A stretch of 61,760 bases of DNA from an uncultured Eubacteriales bacterium (GTDB lineage Bacteria; Bacillota; Clostridia; Lachnospirales; Lachnospiraceae): positions 1-61,760 of the forward strand of contig ONNE01000064.1 in the NCBI GenBank assembly GCA_900319095.1, written 5' to 3'. The notes under the pieces were generated by a model, which made no database searches, was not told the DNA's origin, and worked only from the letters and a program-made list of their open reading frames with translations. Positions 6,917 through 38,134 of the stretch are shown one piece after another. The stretch's first letter is position 1; each line of letters opens with the position of its first letter. The translations under genes were made by a program, and so were the position numbers.

Positions 6917-6953
6917 TTTCATTACATATAGAATATAGAAAGGGAGTGTGCTT

Positions 6954-7760
6954 GTGAAGATTGAACGCATTAGTGAAAATCAGATTCGCTGTACTCTTAG
7001 CAAACATGATCTGATGGAGCGTCATCTGAAAATCAGCGAATTAGCCTATGGTTCCGAGAAGGCAAAAGACTTATTTCGTGACATGATGGAACAAGCCAAC
7101 ATCGATTTGGGATTTGAGGCCGATGATATTCCTCTGATGATAGAAGCGATTCCAACTTCCCGGGACTCCGTAGTCCTTGTGATTACCAAAGTTGAAAATC
7201 CGGAAGAATTCGATGAGAAATTTTCCCGCTTTGGTCTGCAGACCGAAGATGGTTTTTATGAGGATGAGGACGAGGAGCTGGCCGGTGACGAAGAAAACAT
7301 TCTGGATTCGCCTGAGATCGCCAATTGCTTTGAACAATTGCATGAATTGATTGAAGAGGCAGAGAATACCAATCGTGATTCCGGAGAATTTATCCCGCTG
7401 AGTGAATCCCTGCAGGGAAAGAAACCGAAGCGGAAAGAGGGAAAGAAGAAAAAATCAGAAAATATTGGTGAAAAGATCCGGGTATTTTCCTTCCTCTCTC
7501 TGAATCCGATTATTGAAGTCGCACATATGGTTAGCCCTTCTTATACGGGCAAAAATTCAGTTTGGAAAGATGAGTCGGCAAGCCGTTACTATCTTCTTTT
7601 GAACCGTGGCACAACGAAGTCCGCTTTTTTGTCCACCTGTTCACTGGTGTCTGAGTTTGGCAGGGAAGAATCTGTCACATATGCCACACAGGACTATTAT
7701 AATGAGCATTTTCAACTCATTATAAAGGATAAGGCTCTTTTGCAACTGGCAAAATTATGA
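6954..7760 (+). CDS. mecA: ClpC adaptor protein MecA
   Basis: MKIERISENQIRCTL..DL..R, ELAYGSEKAKDLFRDMM and PLMIEAIP motifs; C-terminal SEFG...YYNEHFQLII..AL..L. GTG start after GGGAG. Confidence 0.9.
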   Translation: MKIERISENQIRCTLSKHDLMERHLKISELAYGSEKAKDLFRDMMEQANIDLGFEADDIPLMIEAIPTSRDSVVLVITKVENPEEFDEKFSRFGLQTEDGFYEDEDEELAGDEENILDSPEIANCFEQLHELIEEAENTNRDSGEFIPLSESLQGKKPKRKEGKKKKSENIGEKIRVFSFLSLNPIIEVAHMVSPSYTGKNSVWKDESASRYYLLLNRGTTKSAFLSTCSLVSEFGREESVTYATQDYYNEHFQLIIKDKALLQLAKL

Positions 7761-27831: not shown

Positions 27832-27851
27832 AAAAAAAGCACCTGAGTGCT
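27832..27851 (-). terminator. Weak intrinsic terminator candidate for the minus-strand flagellin operon
   Basis: AGCAC-TCAG-GTGCT followed by TTTTTT on the minus strand. The stem is only 5 bp. Confidence 0.35.
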
Positions 27852-27878
27852 AAAAAGAAAAAAAGGAAGTGAACTGTC

Positions 27879-28088
27879 ATGAGATCAAAAAGAAAAACTC
27901 CTATGCAAATGGCAAGAGAGCAACTAAAAAATGAGATAGAGGCAGTCCAACAATCGCTGGAAACTGCCAATTCTCACTTTGAAAACGCATCGGATCCGGA
28001 TCTTATCGACAGCTATATCTATGAGATGAATGCCATCTCCTTCCGCTATCGATATCTTCTCCGTCAGATCCGCGCATACGAATCCTAA
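27879..28088 (+). CDS. yaaL: YaaL/DUF2508 family protein
   Basis: ANSHFENASDPDLIDSYIYEMNA...RY.YLL motif. Confidence 0.88.
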   Translation: MRSKRKTPMQMAREQLKNEIEAVQQSLETANSHFENASDPDLIDSYIYEMNAISFRYRYLLRQIRAYES

Positions 28089-28571
28089 CTACGCGAGAGA
28101 TCCTCTGTTATTTATGTTATCACCCATCGCGGTCGTCTCATTCAGGCTTCCCCGTCCATAAGTAAGACCGGCATAGATCTGCTCGGTATTTTCCATGATC
28201 GGGCGGGAGGTATCCTGTTTTGCCAATTCTTTAAACGATGGCAACAGTCCCTCTAAAACACCGGTGGAATGATCAAACAGAGAGGAATCTCTCAGCGCCA
28301 TTCCCTGACATAATTCCCTGCGCGCATAGATGTACAGCTGACGCAGATAGTGGGAAATCTCATATTTCATATCCAGACTGCGCATCAATTCCTCAAGAAA
28401 ATCCTCTGCCCTTGTGATCTCCCGACGCGCAGTCTCAAGATCTCCCTGGTCCAGAGCTTCTTTTCCCTCCTGGATGCTTGTAAGCGCTGCCTCATACACG
28501 ATAACGACTAACTCAGTATTGTTTGCCTGAGCAACACGGGTTGCATAACCCTGACGCAATTCTTTGTCCAT
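28089..28571 (-). CDS. fliS: FliS-like flagellin chaperone (atypical, extended C-terminus)
   Basis: ELVVIVYEAA, LEELMRSLDMKYEISHYLRQLYIY motifs. Directly downstream of the flagellin gene. Confidence 0.82.
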   Translation of the reverse strand: MDKELRQGYATRVAQANNTELVVIVYEAALTSIQEGKEALDQGDLETARREITRAEDFLEELMRSLDMKYEISHYLRQLYIYARRELCQGMALRDSSLFDHSTGVLEGLLPSFKELAKQDTSRPIMENTEQIYAGLTYGRGSLNETTAMGDNINNRGSLA

Positions 28572-28593
28572 ATCGTTTTACCCCTATTCATGA

Positions 28594-30018
28594 TTAACCC
28601 TGTAATAACTGTAAAATCGTCTGTGGCTGGTTGTTTGCATGTGCAAGCATGGAGGTACCCGCCTGAACCAAAACGCTATACTGCGTGTAGCGTGTCATTT
28701 CTTCTGACATATCTACATCCTCAATGCGCGAGCATGCCTCTGTCAGGTTCTCGGATGATACATCCAAACTGGAAACAGAAGAATCCAAACGATTCTGATA
28801 AGCACCCAATTTGGCGCGAACTGCGGAAATCTGCTCAATGGCATCGTCAAATGAAGTGATGGCGCTCGATGCTCCCTCATGGGTACAGATGTTGCAATTC
28901 TCTATGTGAAGTGCTTTCGCAGATACGGACGGAACGGAAATATTAACCGTCTGTCCCTCGTTCGCACCAATCTGCACTTTGATGTAACCGGCATCCAGCA
29001 TCGTTACGGAAGCATCGGAAGGTGCCTCGGCACTGCTCACATCAAAAATCATTTTAAATCCACCGCGGTCGGTCACTTCTACCCGGTCTCCATCACAGAA
29101 TACAGTAGCTGTCTTTGCAAATCCTGAATCATCCGTGTCAAGTGTCACTTCTGCATCCTGACCCGGTGTGGATGTTGCTCCGTCAATTCCCAGTTTTGTT
29201 GCCAGCTCGCCATTATCTGTCGTAACAGTAATCGACTGGCTTGATCCGTAAAGTACGCTTGTGAACTTGAGACTTGTGGCTGAATCCAGTTCTGCCTCCT
29301 CACCGGATCCGTCTACCGGTGCTACATCTATGTTCATCATCTCACAATAGTCACGGATTCTCGCATAGACATCCTCATAGGTCTCACCCTCTTTTACTTC
29401 AATGACCTCGCCATTGATCTGAATCTTCCCGGCTGCCTCTTCCGATACGGTTTCGGATGAGGAAATATTGAGAGCACCGGTCTCCAGCGTCGCCTGAGTG
29501 GCCGCCTGATCTACCGAAAAGGTGTATGTTGCGAGTCCCACATCATCACTGGCAGAGATCAGTTTTACTCCCACATTACTGGAGGTGGACTGGCGACAGC
29601 AGGAACCGTCCAATACACTCATGGTATTGTACTCGGTCTGCTTTGATAAGCGGTCAATCTCATCTCTGAGTGAATCGATCTCCTCCTGAATGGCCTGTTT
29701 GTCCTGAAGTGTATTGACATCATTGGCTGCCTGTACAGACAATTCACGACATCTCTGAAGAATATTCTCAATCTCCGTGAGCGCCCCCTCTGCGGTCTGA
29801 ATAAAGGAAATTCCATCCGAGCCGTTTCGGGATGCTCTCATCAGTCCGCGGATCTGTGAGTGCATCTTCTGAGAGATTGCCATTCCCGCTGCATCATCTG
29901 CCGCTTTGTTGATCCGATATCCTGACGACATCTTGGTGGTGCTGTCTGTCAATCTCTTCTGCACAGTATTTAACTTCAGATTTGCCCTCATCGCTGTAAT
30001 ATTGGCATTAATTTTCAT
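28594..30018 (-). CDS. Flagellin (474 aa)
   Basis: SSGYRINKAADDAAG, QTAEGAL, LQRCRELSVQAAN, QIGANEGQ, RAKLGAYQNRL and SRIEDVDM motifs. Confidence 0.97.
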   Translation of the reverse strand: MKINANITAMRANLKLNTVQKRLTDSTTKMSSGYRINKAADDAAGMAISQKMHSQIRGLMRASRNGSDGISFIQTAEGALTEIENILQRCRELSVQAANDVNTLQDKQAIQEEIDSLRDEIDRLSKQTEYNTMSVLDGSCCRQSTSSNVGVKLISASDDVGLATYTFSVDQAATQATLETGALNISSSETVSEEAAGKIQINGEVIEVKEGETYEDVYARIRDYCEMMNIDVAPVDGSGEEAELDSATSLKFTSVLYGSSQSITVTTDNGELATKLGIDGATSTPGQDAEVTLDTDDSGFAKTATVFCDGDRVEVTDRGGFKMIFDVSSAEAPSDASVTMLDAGYIKVQIGANEGQTVNISVPSVSAKALHIENCNICTHEGASSAITSFDDAIEQISAVRAKLGAYQNRLDSSVSSLDVSSENLTEACSRIEDVDMSEEMTRYTQYSVLVQAGTSMLAHANNQPQTILQLLQG

Positions 30019-32954
30019 TCTTCATCATCCTTTCCGACATTTACAATAAAACATTTTGCTATCAGGTAAAGATCCTGATTTTTGGTTCCCTTTGGTGTCT
30101 CATTTATTTCATGAAGAAAACTTCGGTTTCCCTGAACCAGATGATCACTCTCCATAGTAAATCCGTTTTCTTCCAAATCCTTTTCAAATCCATTCAGGAT
30201 TCTCTGACATTCACCCATCGAATCCGTTCTCTGTGCTGTCACAAATCCTCTGACATTCTTGTCACTTACTTTAAAAGTTGCCCGGATTTTACCCAGTCTT
30301 TCAGAATCGACGGATATCTCTACCGTCCCTTTGTTCTGCCCGCCACCCCGGATCGTGACGTTACAACTGGTAATTCCCTGCTCCGTTAGAATTGGTACTT
30401 CATATGTCTGATGACTCCGCAGCGTCTTGTAAAATGAGATGCCTCCTGCCATGCGCGCCAGAGAGACAACGTCACCATATGATATATCGTCATCTTCTCT
30501 CTGATTCTCAATCTCCGTTTTGTGAGTCTCATCAATTTTTTCGTAAAATTCTTCCAATTGATCCAGATCGTCCAAAATTTCTTGGAGCTTTTCGCTCTCT
30601 TCTCTCTTCCACAAAGAGAGATATTCCTGCAATCTGCCACTGGCAAAACTCTGTACCATCATCCGGTTTGCTACTGTGTCCGGCAGATCCATGGCGGATA
30701 AGAAAGATACGAACTCACGATCCAAATCATCTGTCGCAGTGGCCATCGTCTCGGAGATCTCCTGTGCCAGTTCAGAAAAATAATCTTCCATGCCATCCTG
30801 CTCTTCTGCCGCATTTCTCATCCGGTCAAGCAGGCTCTCCATCGAAAAGTCCCAGACATCCTCACCCAGCTCTCTCAATACTGAGGGAAGCAGTTCTCTC
30901 TGCAACTGATTTGCAACCGAACTCTGATAGGCCGTCTGAATCTGTGCGTCAATGGATTCTCCCTTTGTCACGATCTTTTCCAGACCACCAAAGGAGTCAT
31001 CAATTTCGACATCTAATCCCTCTGCTCTTCTTGTTCTCGTGGCAGACAACAGAGAGGATAATGACAACTCTCTTCCCTCTTTGATAACCTGTCCAATCAC
31101 GGCACCATCGCTCTTTTCAATCTTATCCAAAAGCCGATAGACACCGATCATACTGCTTCGCTCCTGTTCACTGAGATTGTTCTGCCGATCCATCTTCCAC
31201 AGGAATTTGCGCAGCGACACATCTTGTGTCGGCAGCTCACTCTGAATCGTATGTACCGCTTCACTCAACTCATCCAAGGTCATAGAGAGCGGATTGATAT
31301 CCCGGTGAATCAACTCGGCAACTACCGGTGGGCGCATATTCTTCATCAAAGTCGTAACCTTATCATCGTACGCTTTCATATTCTCGATGTTTTCAGCAGA
31401 GACTTCCATCTGATTGTATCCCAGTATCCGCACGGCTCTCTGATTCATGGCTGTCTTTTCAAGTCCCAGCTCATCTAGTATCTCATCGATATTTCCAAAT
31501 GCTTTTTTGATGGAATCCCCCAGATCTGTACGCACCTCTGTGCCCACCGCTTCGTAAGTCCTTTCCATCTTGTCGTACTGTGCTTTTAATACGGATGCCG
31601 AATCCGACAGTTCCGTAAGTGTCTGTGTCGATGCTGACTCAATCGTGTTCGCCAATAACTCTACCGGTGCCGACAATACATTGTGAGCGGCCGATGTTGT
31701 ATCAGAGAAAACGGTTATATTCTGTTCGGTGACCGGTACTCCGGCCTCCTCCAGCCACATCTGTTTTGCCTGCTGCTCCTGTTCTCTCAATTCCATAACA
31801 ATCTGTTCCAGATTCGAGAGATTCAGATCAATTCCCCTGGCTGCCATCGACCGCGCGGCCGATGCCGTCATCATCAGACGAATTTCTTCCATCTGACGCT
31901 TGGCAGTGATAAAATCAACTTCCGATGGATAGATACTGCGAATCTTCTGATCATCTGCTGCCAGAAGTTCATCTACCGTATCCTGCGCCTCTCTCATTGA
32001 CATCGTTGTCAAATCTGCTTTTTTCGGCTCGATTCCCTCTGCAATGTGATCGACTATCCGCTCCACCAGTGTATCCATCCCGGCATCCCGGATCTGTTCT
32101 AACTGCTCATAAGTACGGATATTGTCCGCTGTCACGGGAAGTTCGTTGTCATACAGCCACCGGGCGGTCTGCATGACCGGATCTGTCACTTCCATGCCAT
32201 CTGCGTGAAGAATCTTTTCTACCTGTTTTTCCACCGAGGCAAAAGAACTCTCTCCTTCCGGTAAAAAGCCCGGCTGTGACACAGCCCCGCCATAAACACC
32301 GGCGCGGATATTCTCCGGTGTGATTTTCAGTTGATTTCCAATAAAATACTTCATCGTATCTTGAGAAATCTGATCGCGCATCTGTGCGAGTTCAACCGAA
32401 TGCGTCAGATGTTCAACCATATCCGATGTCACCGGCAGGTCGCTCTGCTCAAGCTGACGCTTCAAGGCATCGGAAAGTTCCACACCAATCGCATTTTGTA
32501 TCACATTCTGCTCCAGTGCTTCCCTCTCCTGCCGCTCTCTCGCCACTTGATCTTCGACTGCCTCTCTTCTCTGGGCACGCTGCTCCTTGACGCGCTTTAC
32601 GGCTCTCTCAAGTTGAGATGAAGTATACTCTTCCAACGGAGTTCCTTCCTCAGACAGCTCTCTGGCATCTTCTCCCGTCATACAACGATGGATGAATTCG
32701 GCCGGAGACATATTTCCTGTGTCAGGAATCTCCATGATCTCTGTATTCAATTGTCTGGCTTCTGCCTCTGTGTATACAGTACCGCTCCCCAAATCCTGCT
32801 GTACGGCACAATCCATTGTGTCAATCCGGTTCAGACCGGAAACTTTGCCATCCTTGGCATTCTGTACCGATGCATCCGGCTTCATGGCCTGAGCATCTTT
32901 CAAGGCAAGGGAAATCTGTGTTTTTGTCTGAATTACCATAGATTTCACTCTCAC
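30015..32954 (-). CDS. Giant acidic helical protein, DUF6240-like, with a FliK-like C-terminal domain
   Basis: Motifs YEAVGTEVRTDLGDSIKKAF and ERSSMIGVYRLL..IEKSDGAVIG. C-terminal VEISVDSERLGKIRATFKVSDKNV resembles the FliK-C domain. Sigma-28 promoter upstream; ATGA overlap with flagellin. Confidence 0.7.
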   Translation of the reverse strand: MRVKSMVIQTKTQISLALKDAQAMKPDASVQNAKDGKVSGLNRIDTMDCAVQQDLGSGTVYTEAEARQLNTEIMEIPDTGNMSPAEFIHRCMTGEDARELSEEGTPLEEYTSSQLERAVKRVKEQRAQRREAVEDQVARERQEREALEQNVIQNAIGVELSDALKRQLEQSDLPVTSDMVEHLTHSVELAQMRDQISQDTMKYFIGNQLKITPENIRAGVYGGAVSQPGFLPEGESSFASVEKQVEKILHADGMEVTDPVMQTARWLYDNELPVTADNIRTYEQLEQIRDAGMDTLVERIVDHIAEGIEPKKADLTTMSMREAQDTVDELLAADDQKIRSIYPSEVDFITAKRQMEEIRLMMTASAARSMAARGIDLNLSNLEQIVMELREQEQQAKQMWLEEAGVPVTEQNITVFSDTTSAAHNVLSAPVELLANTIESASTQTLTELSDSASVLKAQYDKMERTYEAVGTEVRTDLGDSIKKAFGNIDEILDELGLEKTAMNQRAVRILGYNQMEVSAENIENMKAYDDKVTTLMKNMRPPVVAELIHRDINPLSMTLDELSEAVHTIQSELPTQDVSLRKFLWKMDRQNNLSEQERSSMIGVYRLLDKIEKSDGAVIGQVIKEGRELSLSSLLSATRTRRAEGLDVEIDDSFGGLEKIVTKGESIDAQIQTAYQSSVANQLQRELLPSVLRELGEDVWDFSMESLLDRMRNAAEEQDGMEDYFSELAQEISETMATATDDLDREFVSFLSAMDLPDTVANRMMVQSFASGRLQEYLSLWKREESEKLQEILDDLDQLEEFYEKIDETHKTEIENQREDDDISYGDVVSLARMAGGISFYKTLRSHQTYEVPILTEQGITSCNVTIRGGGQNKGTVEISVDSERLGKIRATFKVSDKNVRGFVTAQRTDSMGECQRILNGFEKDLEENGFTMESDHLVQGNRSFLHEINETPKGTKNQDLYLIAKCFIVNVGKDDEE

Positions 32955-32973
32955 TTTCCATTCTGTATATTCT

Positions 32974-33001
32974 ATTTCGACTGAAAAGTGAAAAACCTTT
33001 A
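32974..33001 (-). promoter_or_regulatory. sigma-D/sigma-28 flagellar promoter
   Basis: TAAA-N16-GTCGAAAT (consensus TAAA-N16-GCCGATAT). Confidence 0.72.
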
Positions 33002-33006
33002 GATAA

Positions 33007-34092
33007 TCATCCCATATTGCTATATTGGTCTAATAGAGAGTGATCCAATTTGATGCGGTTATCCATCGTCTTCATGACATCGGAGATCCATACCTCCGAC
33101 TTGACAGATGACAGGGACAAGTCACAAAAACTGTTATCACTGAATTTAAGAACAAGCGGCTCAAAAATGTTTTCTTCATTTCCTCGAATCACAAGTCCCT
33201 TCTGTCCATCTGACAGCTCTACGCAGACACCCGGATATAAGATATTGATCGCCTTAATCAGGGAATTTACAATATAAGGGTCATAGCGCTCCGGATTGTC
33301 AAGCATCTCCCGGATTGCCTTTATCTCAGAAGTCGGCTCCTCATAGGACTTCATTGCTGTCATGCGGTCATAACTGTCGGCAATATACAAAATATTGGCA
33401 TTCGGATTTTTCTTAAGTCCCTCCGAAATCTCTCCGTCCTCATTGATATAGAGCTCATGCATCTGATCGATGAGTCGCAACAGCTCCGGATCAACCGAGG
33501 CATCATGTTCCAAAATCTCATGTGTCTTCTTTTTTATCGACTCTCTCTGCTCTTTTGTCAGCTCCTGAATCTCAAGCAGCTGATCAAATCCAAGCGCTCC
33601 GATATCATGTAAAACGGCTGCCTTAACCAATGTATTGATACGCGCTCCGGACAAATTCATCTGACCGGCAATGATCGCAGCCAGAATGGCTACGTTGAGC
33701 GCATGTTTATAGACAAAGTCTTCCGAACTTCTCAGACTCTGCACAAAGTTAATCTTTCTTCCCAGGCTTCCATAATTTTTAATCACAAGACTGCAAAGCC
33801 AGTCCAGTCCCTTATCTTTTTTTCCGGAAGCGATCAGATTCAGATCTTCCCGGATGCTGAATACCGACATCGTCTGGAACCGCTCAAAGTTGATATCATC
33901 CTCGGTCATCGGTGGCAGTGGTTCTGCCGGCTCCAAAATATAGAGTCCCATCAGATTAAAGTTTCGAATTCCGTAGATTGCCTGTATCGTCAATTTTGTG
34001 TCCCGGTCATACAACATGACCCCATTCTTATTATAGATGGGCTTTCCCAGACGCATTCCCGGTTTGAGATCATCTACTTTTACAAAAATCAC
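33007..34092 (-). CDS. HD-GYP-like protein with a degenerate GYP loop
   Basis: LKPGMRLGKPIY N-terminus, HALNVAIL, LHDIG, IADSYDRMT and YPGVCVELSDG motifs. The HHExxDGxGYP motif is absent. Confidence 0.82.
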   Translation of the reverse strand: MIFVKVDDLKPGMRLGKPIYNKNGVMLYDRDTKLTIQAIYGIRNFNLMGLYILEPAEPLPPMTEDDINFERFQTMSVFSIREDLNLIASGKKDKGLDWLCSLVIKNYGSLGRKINFVQSLRSSEDFVYKHALNVAILAAIIAGQMNLSGARINTLVKAAVLHDIGALGFDQLLEIQELTKEQRESIKKKTHEILEHDASVDPELLRLIDQMHELYINEDGEISEGLKKNPNANILYIADSYDRMTAMKSYEEPTSEIKAIREMLDNPERYDPYIVNSLIKAINILYPGVCVELSDGQKGLVIRGNEENIFEPLVLKFSDNSFCDLSLSSVKSEVWISDVMKTMDNRIKLDHSLLDQYSNMG

Positions 34093-36516: not shown

Positions 36517-36565
36517 ATCTATAGATTGATTCGAGCTTGCAAAACGATTGAAAGGAGTGTTTTTA

Positions 36566-38134
36566 ATGAAAAAAACCATGTTAATAATTATGTCCCTTTT
36601 TCTTGTCACGGTATGTCTTTTAGATTTGGCTCTTTGCGGCAACCGATCGAGCGGAACAACAAAGACCGCATCAACCGCAGCGACTGCCACGACATCATCC
36701 CCGGAATCTGCTTCAAAAGAATCGGATTCTGTTCTTCCCGACATCAAACAGGCGAACTTACTGACTTGTGACACCATTTCAGTTCAAAAACCGGACAGAT
36801 TGAATCTGGCGGATGCACAGTTCCCTCATTACCGGGACAGCGATCATTTTATTTATAAAGCTTCTGACAGTCAGAGCACACCGTGTATTTTTCAATTTCA
36901 CAAAGAAACCGGTTCTCTAGATACGTTCTATTCATCCAACAAGAATAAACCAAAGTATTTATACAGCGTAAAAGATGCTTTTATCTACTATTCTCCGGAT
37001 CAACACACTCTTTTTCGCTCTCCCATTAATCATTACAACAGTTCGTACGAGTCGATTGACTTTCATAGGGAAGAATCTCTTTTAAGTCTATCCAGTCAGG
37101 ATTCATTGACAGATATCTATGTCTATTCGCACTCTCTTGTTTTTCTTACCAAAAAACAGCCGGGACAATTGTTCTGCCTTGATCTGACGTCGAAAGAAAT
37201 CACTTCATTTCAGTGCAATGTGTTCTCACCTTCCCTCTCACGAGACAGCGATGAGGAATACTGCGATGATGACTGCGACTACGATTGCGATTGTGACTAC
37301 GATTGCGATTGTGACTACGATTGCGATTGCGATTGCGAAGATTGGGATGAAGACAGTGATGATGACTGCGATAAGACTGAGGATTGGCAGTTTTTGTGCG
37401 GAGTCGGTCCCTATCTCATGCTTTCAAAGGGAAAATACTGGATTCCTCTCTGCTTTGATATCCAACTCGGAAAGCTGACCACTTTTGAGTCAGAAGACGC
37501 CTACGATACGGATTGGGTTTTTGTGAACTCGTATACGATGGCAGATCAGTATTTTTTCTATGCGACAACTCTTTCTTATGACTGTGATGACGAATGTGAA
37601 GATGAGGAGTATGACTACTCCGGGCAAACAATTAATCTTTACAACATGAAAACCAATAAGAAATCGTCCCTGATTTCCGGACAAAAAATACAGAACGCTG
37701 TCAAACAGGCCTTTGGGGATCAGGCAGACAATGTGACTTCCTGTGAGACTTCCCATATGTTGATCTGCCAGAATACCCTCTATCTGGAAATCACTCTTAC
37801 GTTTGAAAAAAATTGGGAGACTACCGGGCGAAGTGCCATTTTTTCCTTGAACTTATCGGATTTGCACGGCAGTCTTAAATACGAGAAAGCACTCGATGAA
37901 TTTATCCAGAAAAACAGCTCCTTTTACACCACATGGGATGAAGACGATATCGACTCCATCAACTTAAGCGGACTCTTTGGTATTCAGGATGACAGCATCC
38001 TGATCGGATGCCAGAATAAAAAAGGGAATGTCGATACCTTCTATCTTTACAACCCAAAGACCGGAGAGAACAAAAAAGTTGAAGAGCGCATCCGAAACTG
38101 GATTGAGACAAATTCAAAGATCCATCCGGATTGA
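36566..38134 (+). CDS. Exported hypothetical protein with a Cys/Asp repeat insert
   Basis: ATG at 36566 after AAGGAG. Signal/lipoprotein-like N-terminus, Ser/Thr linker, aromatic beta-rich body. Confidence 0.75.
   Translation: MKKTMLIIMSLFLVTVCLLDLALCGNRSSGTTKTASTAATATTSSPESASKESDSVLPDIKQANLLTCDTISVQKPDRLNLADAQFPHYRDSDHFIYKASDSQSTPCIFQFHKETGSLDTFYSSNKNKPKYLYSVKDAFIYYSPDQHTLFRSPINHYNSSYESIDFHREESLLSLSSQDSLTDIYVYSHSLVFLTKKQPGQLFCLDLTSKEITSFQCNVFSPSLSRDSDEEYCDDDCDYDCDCDYDCDCDYDCDCDCEDWDEDSDDDCDKTEDWQFLCGVGPYLMLSKGKYWIPLCFDIQLGKLTTFESEDAYDTDWVFVNSYTMADQYFFYATTLSYDCDDECEDEEYDYSGQTINLYNMKTNKKSSLISGQKIQNAVKQAFGDQADNVTSCETSHMLICQNTLYLEITLTFEKNWETTGRSAIFSLNLSDLHGSLKYEKALDEFIQKNSSFYTTWDEDDIDSINLSGLFGIQDDSILIGCQNKKGNVDTFYLYNPKTGENKKVEERIRNWIETNSKIHPD
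37277..37336 (+). repeat. In-frame 18-bp tandem repeat GACTACGATTGCGATTGT x3 with internal GATTGY hexamers, encoding DYDCDC
   Basis: Copies start at 37277, 37295 and 37313, followed by an extra GATTGC. Confidence 0.92.

Follow-up and report, generated by a model that had tools for sequence, protein, structure and literature searches.

Minor flagellins of the hook-proximal type, such as FlaB of Helicobacter and FlaA of Shewanella putrefaciens, are low-abundance, separately regulated proteins that occur beside a major flagellin. To our knowledge, neither of them has a dedicated FliS paralogue or a FliK-type partner, and a literature search for minor-flagellin chaperones found no such partner. 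Here we analysed a 61,760-nucleotide stretch of DNA from an uncultured Lachnospiraceae bacterium (contig ONNE01000064.1 of assembly GCA_900319095.1; called the window below), in which three consecutive genes encode a 979-aa protein of the Pfam family DUF6240, a flagellin and a FliS paralogue (FliS2). Our reading, in which we place about even confidence, is that this trio would be a sigma-28-class dedicated export accessory for a minor flagellin and not a second hook ruler, and that the Lachnospirales flagellum has in it a conserved additional module.

The closest described flagellins are the FlaB-like proteins (clade (a) of Neville et al., clade 1 of Duck et al. and the "silent" flagellins of Clasen et al.), which form a separate clade and were found in 95% of G1 gut Clostridia genomes (10.1101/2025.07.18.665615). 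Their prototype, RhFlaB, binds TLR5 and gives little signalling (10.1101/2022.04.12.488020), and the clade-(a) flagellin was predicted to have its own sigma-28 promoter (PMC3720852). The closest FliK relative of late class is FliK2 of Pseudomonas putida (FliK2-FlhX, PP_4328-PP_4329), which is FliA-dependent, uncharacterised and encoded in a fliK2-flhX operon (10.1101/2021.08.29.457346). The window flagellin falls on the same side of the flagellin tree as the FlaB-like proteins and has the same fliS2-DUF2508-tad neighbourhood, but its gene overlaps the DUF6240 gene and has no promoter of its own, whereas in Roseburia-like genomes the flagellin gene lies 4-9 kb from DUF6240.

The DUF6240 protein and FliS2

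The trio is read from the reverse strand. The DUF6240 gene (32954-30015 in the ORF list, GTG start) is followed by the flagellin gene (30018-28594, 474 aa), whose ATG shares bases with the TGA of the upstream frame (ATGA), and by the FliS2 gene (28571-28089, 160 aa), which contains ENTEQIYAGLTYGRGSLNE and is the second FliS of the genome. These three frames, the overlap, the C-terminal extension of FliS2 and a promoter motif all stand where a preliminary description of the window had placed them. It had also said that the window holds no other flagellar structural genes, and none of the flagellar families was found among the 46 further ORFs and 5 others that were scanned.

The trio is extra to an ordinary flagellar set, since canonical fliK, fliS and other flagellins are encoded elsewhere in the source genome, which is 92.8% complete. 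Canonical fliS follows fliD on contig C64, canonical fliK precedes flgD-flgE on C137, flhB and flhX are present, and at least two further flagellins were found, broken at contig ends. Functions were assigned to these genes and their neighbours from the translations, save where a family search was made. These copies rule out the trio as the sole FliK, sole FliS or sole flagellin of the genome. C139:83-11843 encodes, directly after a flagellin C-terminus, a tandem series of proteins of 850-880 aa that have an FFEDEVRDGF-like start and a PWDDD motif; we take these to be LicD-like, and the region is possibly a flagellin-modification island. Two tandem flgK-like genes lie at C64:1308-4986, as noted in PMC3720852.

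The 979-aa protein matched Pfam DUF6240 with 339 bits, and the core of the match (residues 355-636; 31047-31892, reverse strand) is the best-conserved part of the protein. In the AlphaFold2 model (124 sequences, mean pLDDT 75.3, pTM 0.56), residues 1-82 are disordered (pLDDT below 50), residues 84-847 form helical repeats and residues 850-977 form a beta/alpha domain; residues 236-648 modelled alone gave a mean pLDDT of 84.8 and a pTM of 0.45. Foldseek with the whole model and with residues 236-648 returned nothing for the helical body at E below 0.001, the core included, and the best VIA-align hits (Z 7.7) were generic two-helix hairpins at 343-405, a lack of match that is no proof of a new fold. 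An Atlas search gave DUF6240 clusters only, and family scans detected no catalytic or regulatory domain.

The C-terminal domain (residues 850-977; 30024-30407, reverse strand) is of the same type as that of FliK (PF02120; the T3S4 domain of YscP/PscP). A Flg_hook match at residues 872-936 reached 22.7 bits, below the cut-off of 29.8, and the structure matched PscP 5CUK (probability 0.99, TM 0.54 by target, rmsd 2.5 over 68 columns, E 0.69) and FliK 2RRL (E 0.024). These matches are weak but concordant, so we consider a T3S4-type domain to be present. When the DUF6240 profile was searched against the ORFs of the source genome, a 585-aa FliK2-like protein (C52:5321-7078) scored 56.5 bits (E 5.8e-16), with similarity in both the repeat and the C-terminal parts, and the C-terminus of canonical FliK scored 22 bits. 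The gene of this FliK2-like protein is not linked to flhX, which encodes 94 aa and follows rnhB (C219:2969-3253), unlike the fliK2-flhX operon of P. putida.

FliK proteins are recognised by an LxPxxLG motif with its proline, a DxxA-type C-terminal tail and a long disordered N-terminal ruler region, and the FliK of the source genome itself has the first two (LHPASLG and a VDYTA end). Among 149 rows of DUF6240 proteins, 130 have S or T in place of the proline (P is outside the five commonest residues, while G is kept in 142), and a DxxA-type end was found in only 6/149 and 1/79 rows. The long disordered region is absent from the model, in which only residues 1-82 are disordered before a folded helical body, and the protein is encoded outside the rod/hook operon, where the slot before flgD is taken by another gene (C137). 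Because the LxPxxLG proline and the DxxA-type end are absent, the DUF6240 protein resembles by its sequence a FliK2-type paralogue and should not be filed as FliK. Like FliK2 of P. putida it would be a late-class FliK-domain paralogue with a predicted sigma-28 promoter, but its length is about double, it contains the DUF6240 core and it is partnered with a flagellin and a FliS instead of flhX. The late-class, giant FliK-like partner of the preliminary description is not unprecedented in view of fliK2, a FliK paralogue of the sigma-28 class (10.1101/2021.08.29.457346).

It is very unlikely that the DUF6240 protein is itself an export substrate and serves as a late ruler, fixing the length of the filament or setting off a third substrate switch. 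The FliK-type C-terminal domain, the disordered first 82 residues and the range of lengths in the family (about 930 to more than 1700 aa, the longest members having additional repeats) would suit such a ruler, but residues 84-847 are confidently predicted as helical domains with only 2.4% proline, the two hallmarks are mostly replaced as counted above, and a chain of 1000 residues falls far short of the length of a filament. With a body modelled as folded helices and the two hallmarks missing, the filament-length ruler that had been suggested for this protein is improbable. DUF6240 proteins of 1730-2216 aa with additional internal repeats were seen at locus L114 (genome G204) and as P0397, P0429 and P0465.

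The FliS2 core scored 80 bits against Pfam FliS (cut-off 26.7) and 51.2 against TIGR00208, just below 53.75, and it aligned with FliS structures at profile positions 12-121 (E 4.8e-18). The core is common to FliS of Bacillus subtilis (5MAW/6GOW), but FliS2 is a second copy, extended by a conserved tail of 35 residues (residues 126-160 with an invariant Y138; 28092-28196, reverse strand), which has no counterpart in canonical FliS and no match in the solved FliS structures. The tail motif was present in 72/79 rows and an RG[FY]xA-type end in 73/79. No relation was found between the FliS2 and DUF6240 profiles. In one genome (G044) the trio occurs twice on one contig (L056 and L057), and the FliS2 of one copy is missing most of the tail.

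Distribution, gene order and promoter

In an order-level draw of 61 genomes, including the source genome, DUF6240 was above cut-off in 53, and of the 24 genomes that belong to other families it was found in 19; four of the remaining five have no FliF and the fifth has ordinary FliS only. In a family draw of 151 genomes, each at least 90% complete, DUF6240 was found in 64, full-length tail-bearing FliS2 in the identical 64, and FliF in 78. The module was thus present in 64/78 genomes with FliF and in 0/73 without it. Moreover, flgF-flgG was on a separate contig or distant in all 15 module genomes checked but within about 21 kb of fliF in all 14 flagellated module-less genomes, which agrees with the G1/G2 split of Duck et al. 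(10.1101/2025.07.18.665615), the distance being anchored here on fliF and not on flhA. The number of rod/hook-domain genes was mostly six in module genomes and five in the others. A phylum-wide draw found the DUF6240 protein in 2/251 genomes, both of the same family, and with at most 8 genomes drawn per family this does not show absence elsewhere; a family search with P0255 at E 1e-150 gave 0/401 because the threshold was too strict.

We then compared the loci themselves in four sets. The genus set comprised 20 loci taken from the 30 with the best scores; the other-family set, 20 loci in 19 genomes; the family set, 40 loci in 38 genomes out of the 63 that carry the module besides the source genome; and the last set, 26 loci of one Roseburia-like genus. 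The three genes were adjacent in 20/20 genus loci, in 36/38 family genomes and in 14/20 other-family loci, in 3 of which (3/14) the order was flagellin-DUF6240-fliS2. In the Roseburia-like loci flagellin and fliS2 were adjacent in 26/26, and DUF6240 lay a few kb upstream beyond mecA in 21/26. The overlap of DUF6240 and flagellin was found in 18/20 genus loci, as in the window, but in only 5/36 family loci. The ATGA overlap is mainly a genus-level feature, and the coupled flagellin of the preliminary description holds for the window and its genus only; universal translational coupling is rejected by the 5/36 count and by the 4-9 kb gap in Roseburia-like genomes. The window itself carries mecA at 6948-7760 on the forward strand, 20 kb from the trio, whereas mecA is directly 5' of the flagellin in 26/26 Roseburia-like loci.

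A predicted sigma-28-type promoter motif, TAAA-N16-GTCGAAAT, lies before the trio at 33001-32974 (reverse strand), 19 nt before the GTG and with the -10 variant CGAAAT. The leader of DUF6240 would be very short, so the true start may be residue 3 or 6, and the Atlas record of the protein begins at residue 6. By itself the pattern, which was written so as to admit the window's own -10 variant, is within chance, since 61.8 kb would be expected to give 0.94 matches and gave 2 (24/100 shuffles reach 2). Across loci, however, the strict pattern stood upstream of 25/87 DUF6240 genes and 4/299 other genes, and at 9/10 positions it stood upstream of 68/87 DUF6240 genes, 33/289 other genes, 36/94 module flagellins and 5/93 fliS2 genes. 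It is this conservation, not the match in the window, that makes the motif credible and leads us to reject a chance promoter. The -10 element was CGAAAT in 40/68 DUF6240 promoters, compared with CGATAT or CGATAA in 29/36 flagellin-proximal promoters (loci L044-L204), so CGAAAT is a conserved deviation that may weaken the promoter. Directly before the window flagellin no promoter-like site was found (best score 7/10), which bears out the absence of an internal promoter. Three RNA runs contained 5-9% of words, and their contigs were scattered alike over module, tad and flanking genes, so they were uninformative on expression.

Downstream of the trio, a DUF2508 gene (27876-28088, forward strand) converges on fliS2, a terminator-like hairpin with a T run (27838-27851, reverse strand) marks a predicted transcript end, and a Tad-type cluster (A24 peptidase, TadA-type ATPase, T2SSF) follows. 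Tad genes began within 2.5 kb after fliS2 in 15/20 genus, 19/37 family and 20/20 Roseburia-like loci, so most Lachnospiraceae loci would be compatible with a module that serves the neighbouring Tad pilus and not the flagellum. We regard this as most improbable: only 1/13 other-family loci have Tad there, the convergent DUF2508 gene and the hairpin intervene, and the presence of the module follows FliF. Hairpin-type sites were found 3' of fliS2 in 9/56 tad-linked loci and 1/56 controls. The Tad cluster does adjoin the trio, as the preliminary description had pointed out, but outside the family the association is rare, and it looks like inherited synteny.

Just upstream of the DUF6240 gene is a gene for an HD-GYP-type protein (33007-34092, reverse strand), and this linkage is mainly within the genus (12/20 genus loci, 1/40 family loci). 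Farther upstream, 36548-38134 encodes a 528-aa protein with no Pfam match and a CDDDCDYDCD-type Cys/Asp repeat tract.

The flagellin and its published relatives

The window flagellin has intact N- and C-terminal flagellin domains and the TLR5-epitope residues Q88, R89 and Q96. In a maximum-likelihood tree of 109 rows, built from these two domains, 59 module flagellins split from 50 others with support 99/99, as expected if this flagellin belongs to a clade of its own. The tree is unrooted, its bootstrap was not fully settled, and it left out 2 partial and 15 redundant same-genus loci, 8 near-copies, FlgL and N-truncated flagellin-like proteins. The clade-(a) protein of Roseburia intestinalis, EEV02820.1, grouped with the module flagellins and shares 43% identity with that of the window over 496 aligned positions, middle domains included. 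Genome G758 encodes EEV02820.1 exactly, and its 486-aa, 51.90-kDa form equals the clade-(a) entry of PMC3720852.

The link to RhFlaB was made through a second Roseburia-like genome, G756, whose flagellin of 506 aa and 54.48 kDa has the ten-residue start published for RHOM_15820 (PMC3720852); a scan for the RHOM_15820 N-terminus found a single relative. In this locus FliS2 is 31 nt 3' of the flagellin, and mecA and DUF6240 are 5', with DUF6240 6.5 kb away. RhFlaB was described as a protein of about 54 kDa with Q88, R89, Q96 and H478 (10.1101/2022.04.12.488020), and both remaining flagellins of R. hominis have masses near 30 kDa (PMC3720852), so, judged by mass, RhFlaB is RHOM_15820. The histidine is at 479 in our count of the RHOM_15820-like protein, one off the published 478. 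A non-basic residue at this position was the filter of Clasen et al. for silent flagellins (10.1101/2022.04.12.488020); the corresponding residue is non-basic, Q446, in the window flagellin and H in the R. intestinalis protein, yet K in 11/59 module rows. G756 also has a 258-aa flagellin-like protein without the first N-terminal helix, after an HD-type gene (L221:1492-2268). Similar weak Flagellin_N matches were seen in G173, G187, G190, G139 and G041 and none in the genome of the window, and Neville's table lists three R. hominis flagellins, none of them 258 aa long (PMC3720852).

In sheared preparations, FlaB-like proteins were undetected or reached 1-6% of the lowest other flagellin, and mouse mucus contained trace or no FlaB (10.1101/2025.07.18.665615). 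These proteomic data fit the "low-copy" flagellin of the preliminary description. The published TLR5 and abundance data cover Roseburia and mouse isolates only (10.1101/2022.04.12.488020; 10.1101/2025.07.18.665615). On the filament, an anti-RhFlaB antibody gave bands in sheared-filament fractions, and Bell et al. built RhFlaB into their model of a 22-mer filament of R. hominis, in which the outer domains had no density (10.1101/2024.12.09.627598). We found that G756, the genome with the RHOM_15820-like gene, encodes a 270-aa flagellin (L218:1495-2304) to which the 22-chain filament of PDB 9HPZ is 100% identical. A literature search for 9HPZ turned up unrelated papers. If 9HPZ and the Bell preprint are one data set, a link made only by the 22 chains, then the native filament is not FlaB.

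Secreted homologues of flagellin exist, such as FlaC of Campylobacter and FlaE/F of Vibrio. FlaB could likewise be exported through FliS2 and DUF6240 and then be released or bound to the matrix for adhesion or host signalling. This agrees with the trace amounts in sheared preparations and mucus (10.1101/2025.07.18.665615), with the TLR5 binding and low signalling of RhFlaB (10.1101/2022.04.12.488020), with the tad genes after fliS2 in the three Lachnospiraceae sets, and with the deviation of module flagellins at positions near-fixed in the others (11, 14, 50, 53, 429 and 433). We still consider it rather unlikely, because module flagellins, which are 280-700 aa long with large, variable middle domains, conserve both terminal polymerisation regions at full length, because the module is present in 19/24 other-family genomes with Tad after only 1/13 of their loci, and because the antibody signal was in filament fractions (10.1101/2024.12.09.627598).

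A proposed export accessory for FlaB

The delivery of flagellin by FliS to FlhA and the contact of FliK with FlhB provide analogies for how the trio could work. Sigma-28 likely reads the three genes, and FliS2 would hold the FlaB-type flagellin, for which it would be specific. The helical core of DUF6240 would bind the FlaB-FliS2 pair, perhaps via the FliS2 tail, and its C-terminal domain would contact FlhB or FlhX, placing the pair at the export gate, so the DUF6240 protein would likely be a cytoplasmic adaptor of FliK2 type. A few FlaB subunits would then enter a filament made mostly of other flagellins. Export of FlaB would be early and brief, and in its simplest form would give a short hook-proximal segment, which would reconcile the trace spectral counts with the antibody signal seen in filament fractions and with a filament whose bulk is another flagellin. 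In favour of this reading are the identical distribution of DUF6240 and FliS2 and its restriction to flagellated genomes, a gene linkage that persists where the gene order has changed, the separate flagellin clade with both terminal domains kept, the published trace levels, the antibody bands, the identity of 9HPZ to another flagellin, and the matches of the DUF6240 profile to the FliK2-like protein and to the C-terminus of canonical FliK. A bolder version, which we think unlikely, is a third substrate-specific export step, in which a FliK-derived gatekeeper and a private chaperone lay TLR5-"silent" FlaB first, on a two-FlgK junction, giving a filament base undescribed in model organisms.

A cytoplasmic checkpoint would use the same parts differently, as in the Hag-FliW-CsrA and FlgM-FliS systems: export of FlaB after hook completion would free FliS2, whose tail would act on DUF6240 and tune flagellar output or the motile-to-sessile switch. 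FlaB levels resemble those of intracellular proteins (10.1101/2025.07.18.665615), the FliS2 tail is strongly conserved without a canonical counterpart, DUF6240 is modelled as a large folded scaffold, and an HD-GYP gene lies upstream in this genus. We judge this quite unlikely, since family scans of DUF6240 detected neither a regulatory nor a catalytic domain, FlaB retains large variable middle domains that a purely internal sensor would not need, and the HD-GYP linkage is local (1/40 family loci).

Several points weigh against a dedicated export accessory for a minor flagellin. Duck et al. hold that FlaB-like levels are inconsistent with packaging into filaments (10.1101/2025.07.18.665615), a conclusion that agrees equally with a FlaB that is not assembled and with one that is minor. 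Clasen et al. cite in vivo FlaB expression (10.1101/2022.04.12.488020), and Bell et al. assigned the whole filament to RhFlaB from antibody evidence (10.1101/2024.12.09.627598), which, if right, contradicts a minor FlaB. The C-terminal domain of DUF6240 was matched weakly by every method (Pfam, 5CUK and 2RRL). The trio was split in 2/38 family genomes, and 6/20 other-family loci were short of one or two neighbours (3 were cut by contig ends), with FliS2 found elsewhere in 5/5 of the genomes with an incomplete locus that were checked, weakly in one. Related genomes are moreover not independent samples, and few events may underlie the co-occurrence. The overall interpretation of the preliminary description is partly supported.

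Our literature search found no paper that names DUF6240 (subscription papers were mostly outside it) and nothing on the gene trio, with preprint supplements such as the flagellin and proteomics tables of Duck et al. outside the search; fliS, fliK and DUF do not occur in the accessible text of that preprint (10.1101/2025.07.18.665615), and the passages covered on FlaB-like flagellins speak neither of DUF6240 nor of another FliS. All parts of the trio are from known families and the flagellin clade is published, but the trio as a unit that is inherited together, and the connection of this unit with RhFlaB, appear to be undescribed.

Duck et al. state that it is unclear why 95% of G1 gut Clostridia keep FlaB-like genes whose proteins are barely detectable (10.1101/2025.07.18.665615). 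Linking FlaB with a chaperone that is inherited along with it and with a FliK-related protein of 1000 residues would offer a testable mechanism for this puzzle, with two targets for knock-out. It also gives Pfam DUF6240 a functional lead, and the module could serve as a gene-content marker for flagella of the G1 type. The occurrence of the module in many families of the order further suggests that a function in assembling the flagellum came before any immune one.

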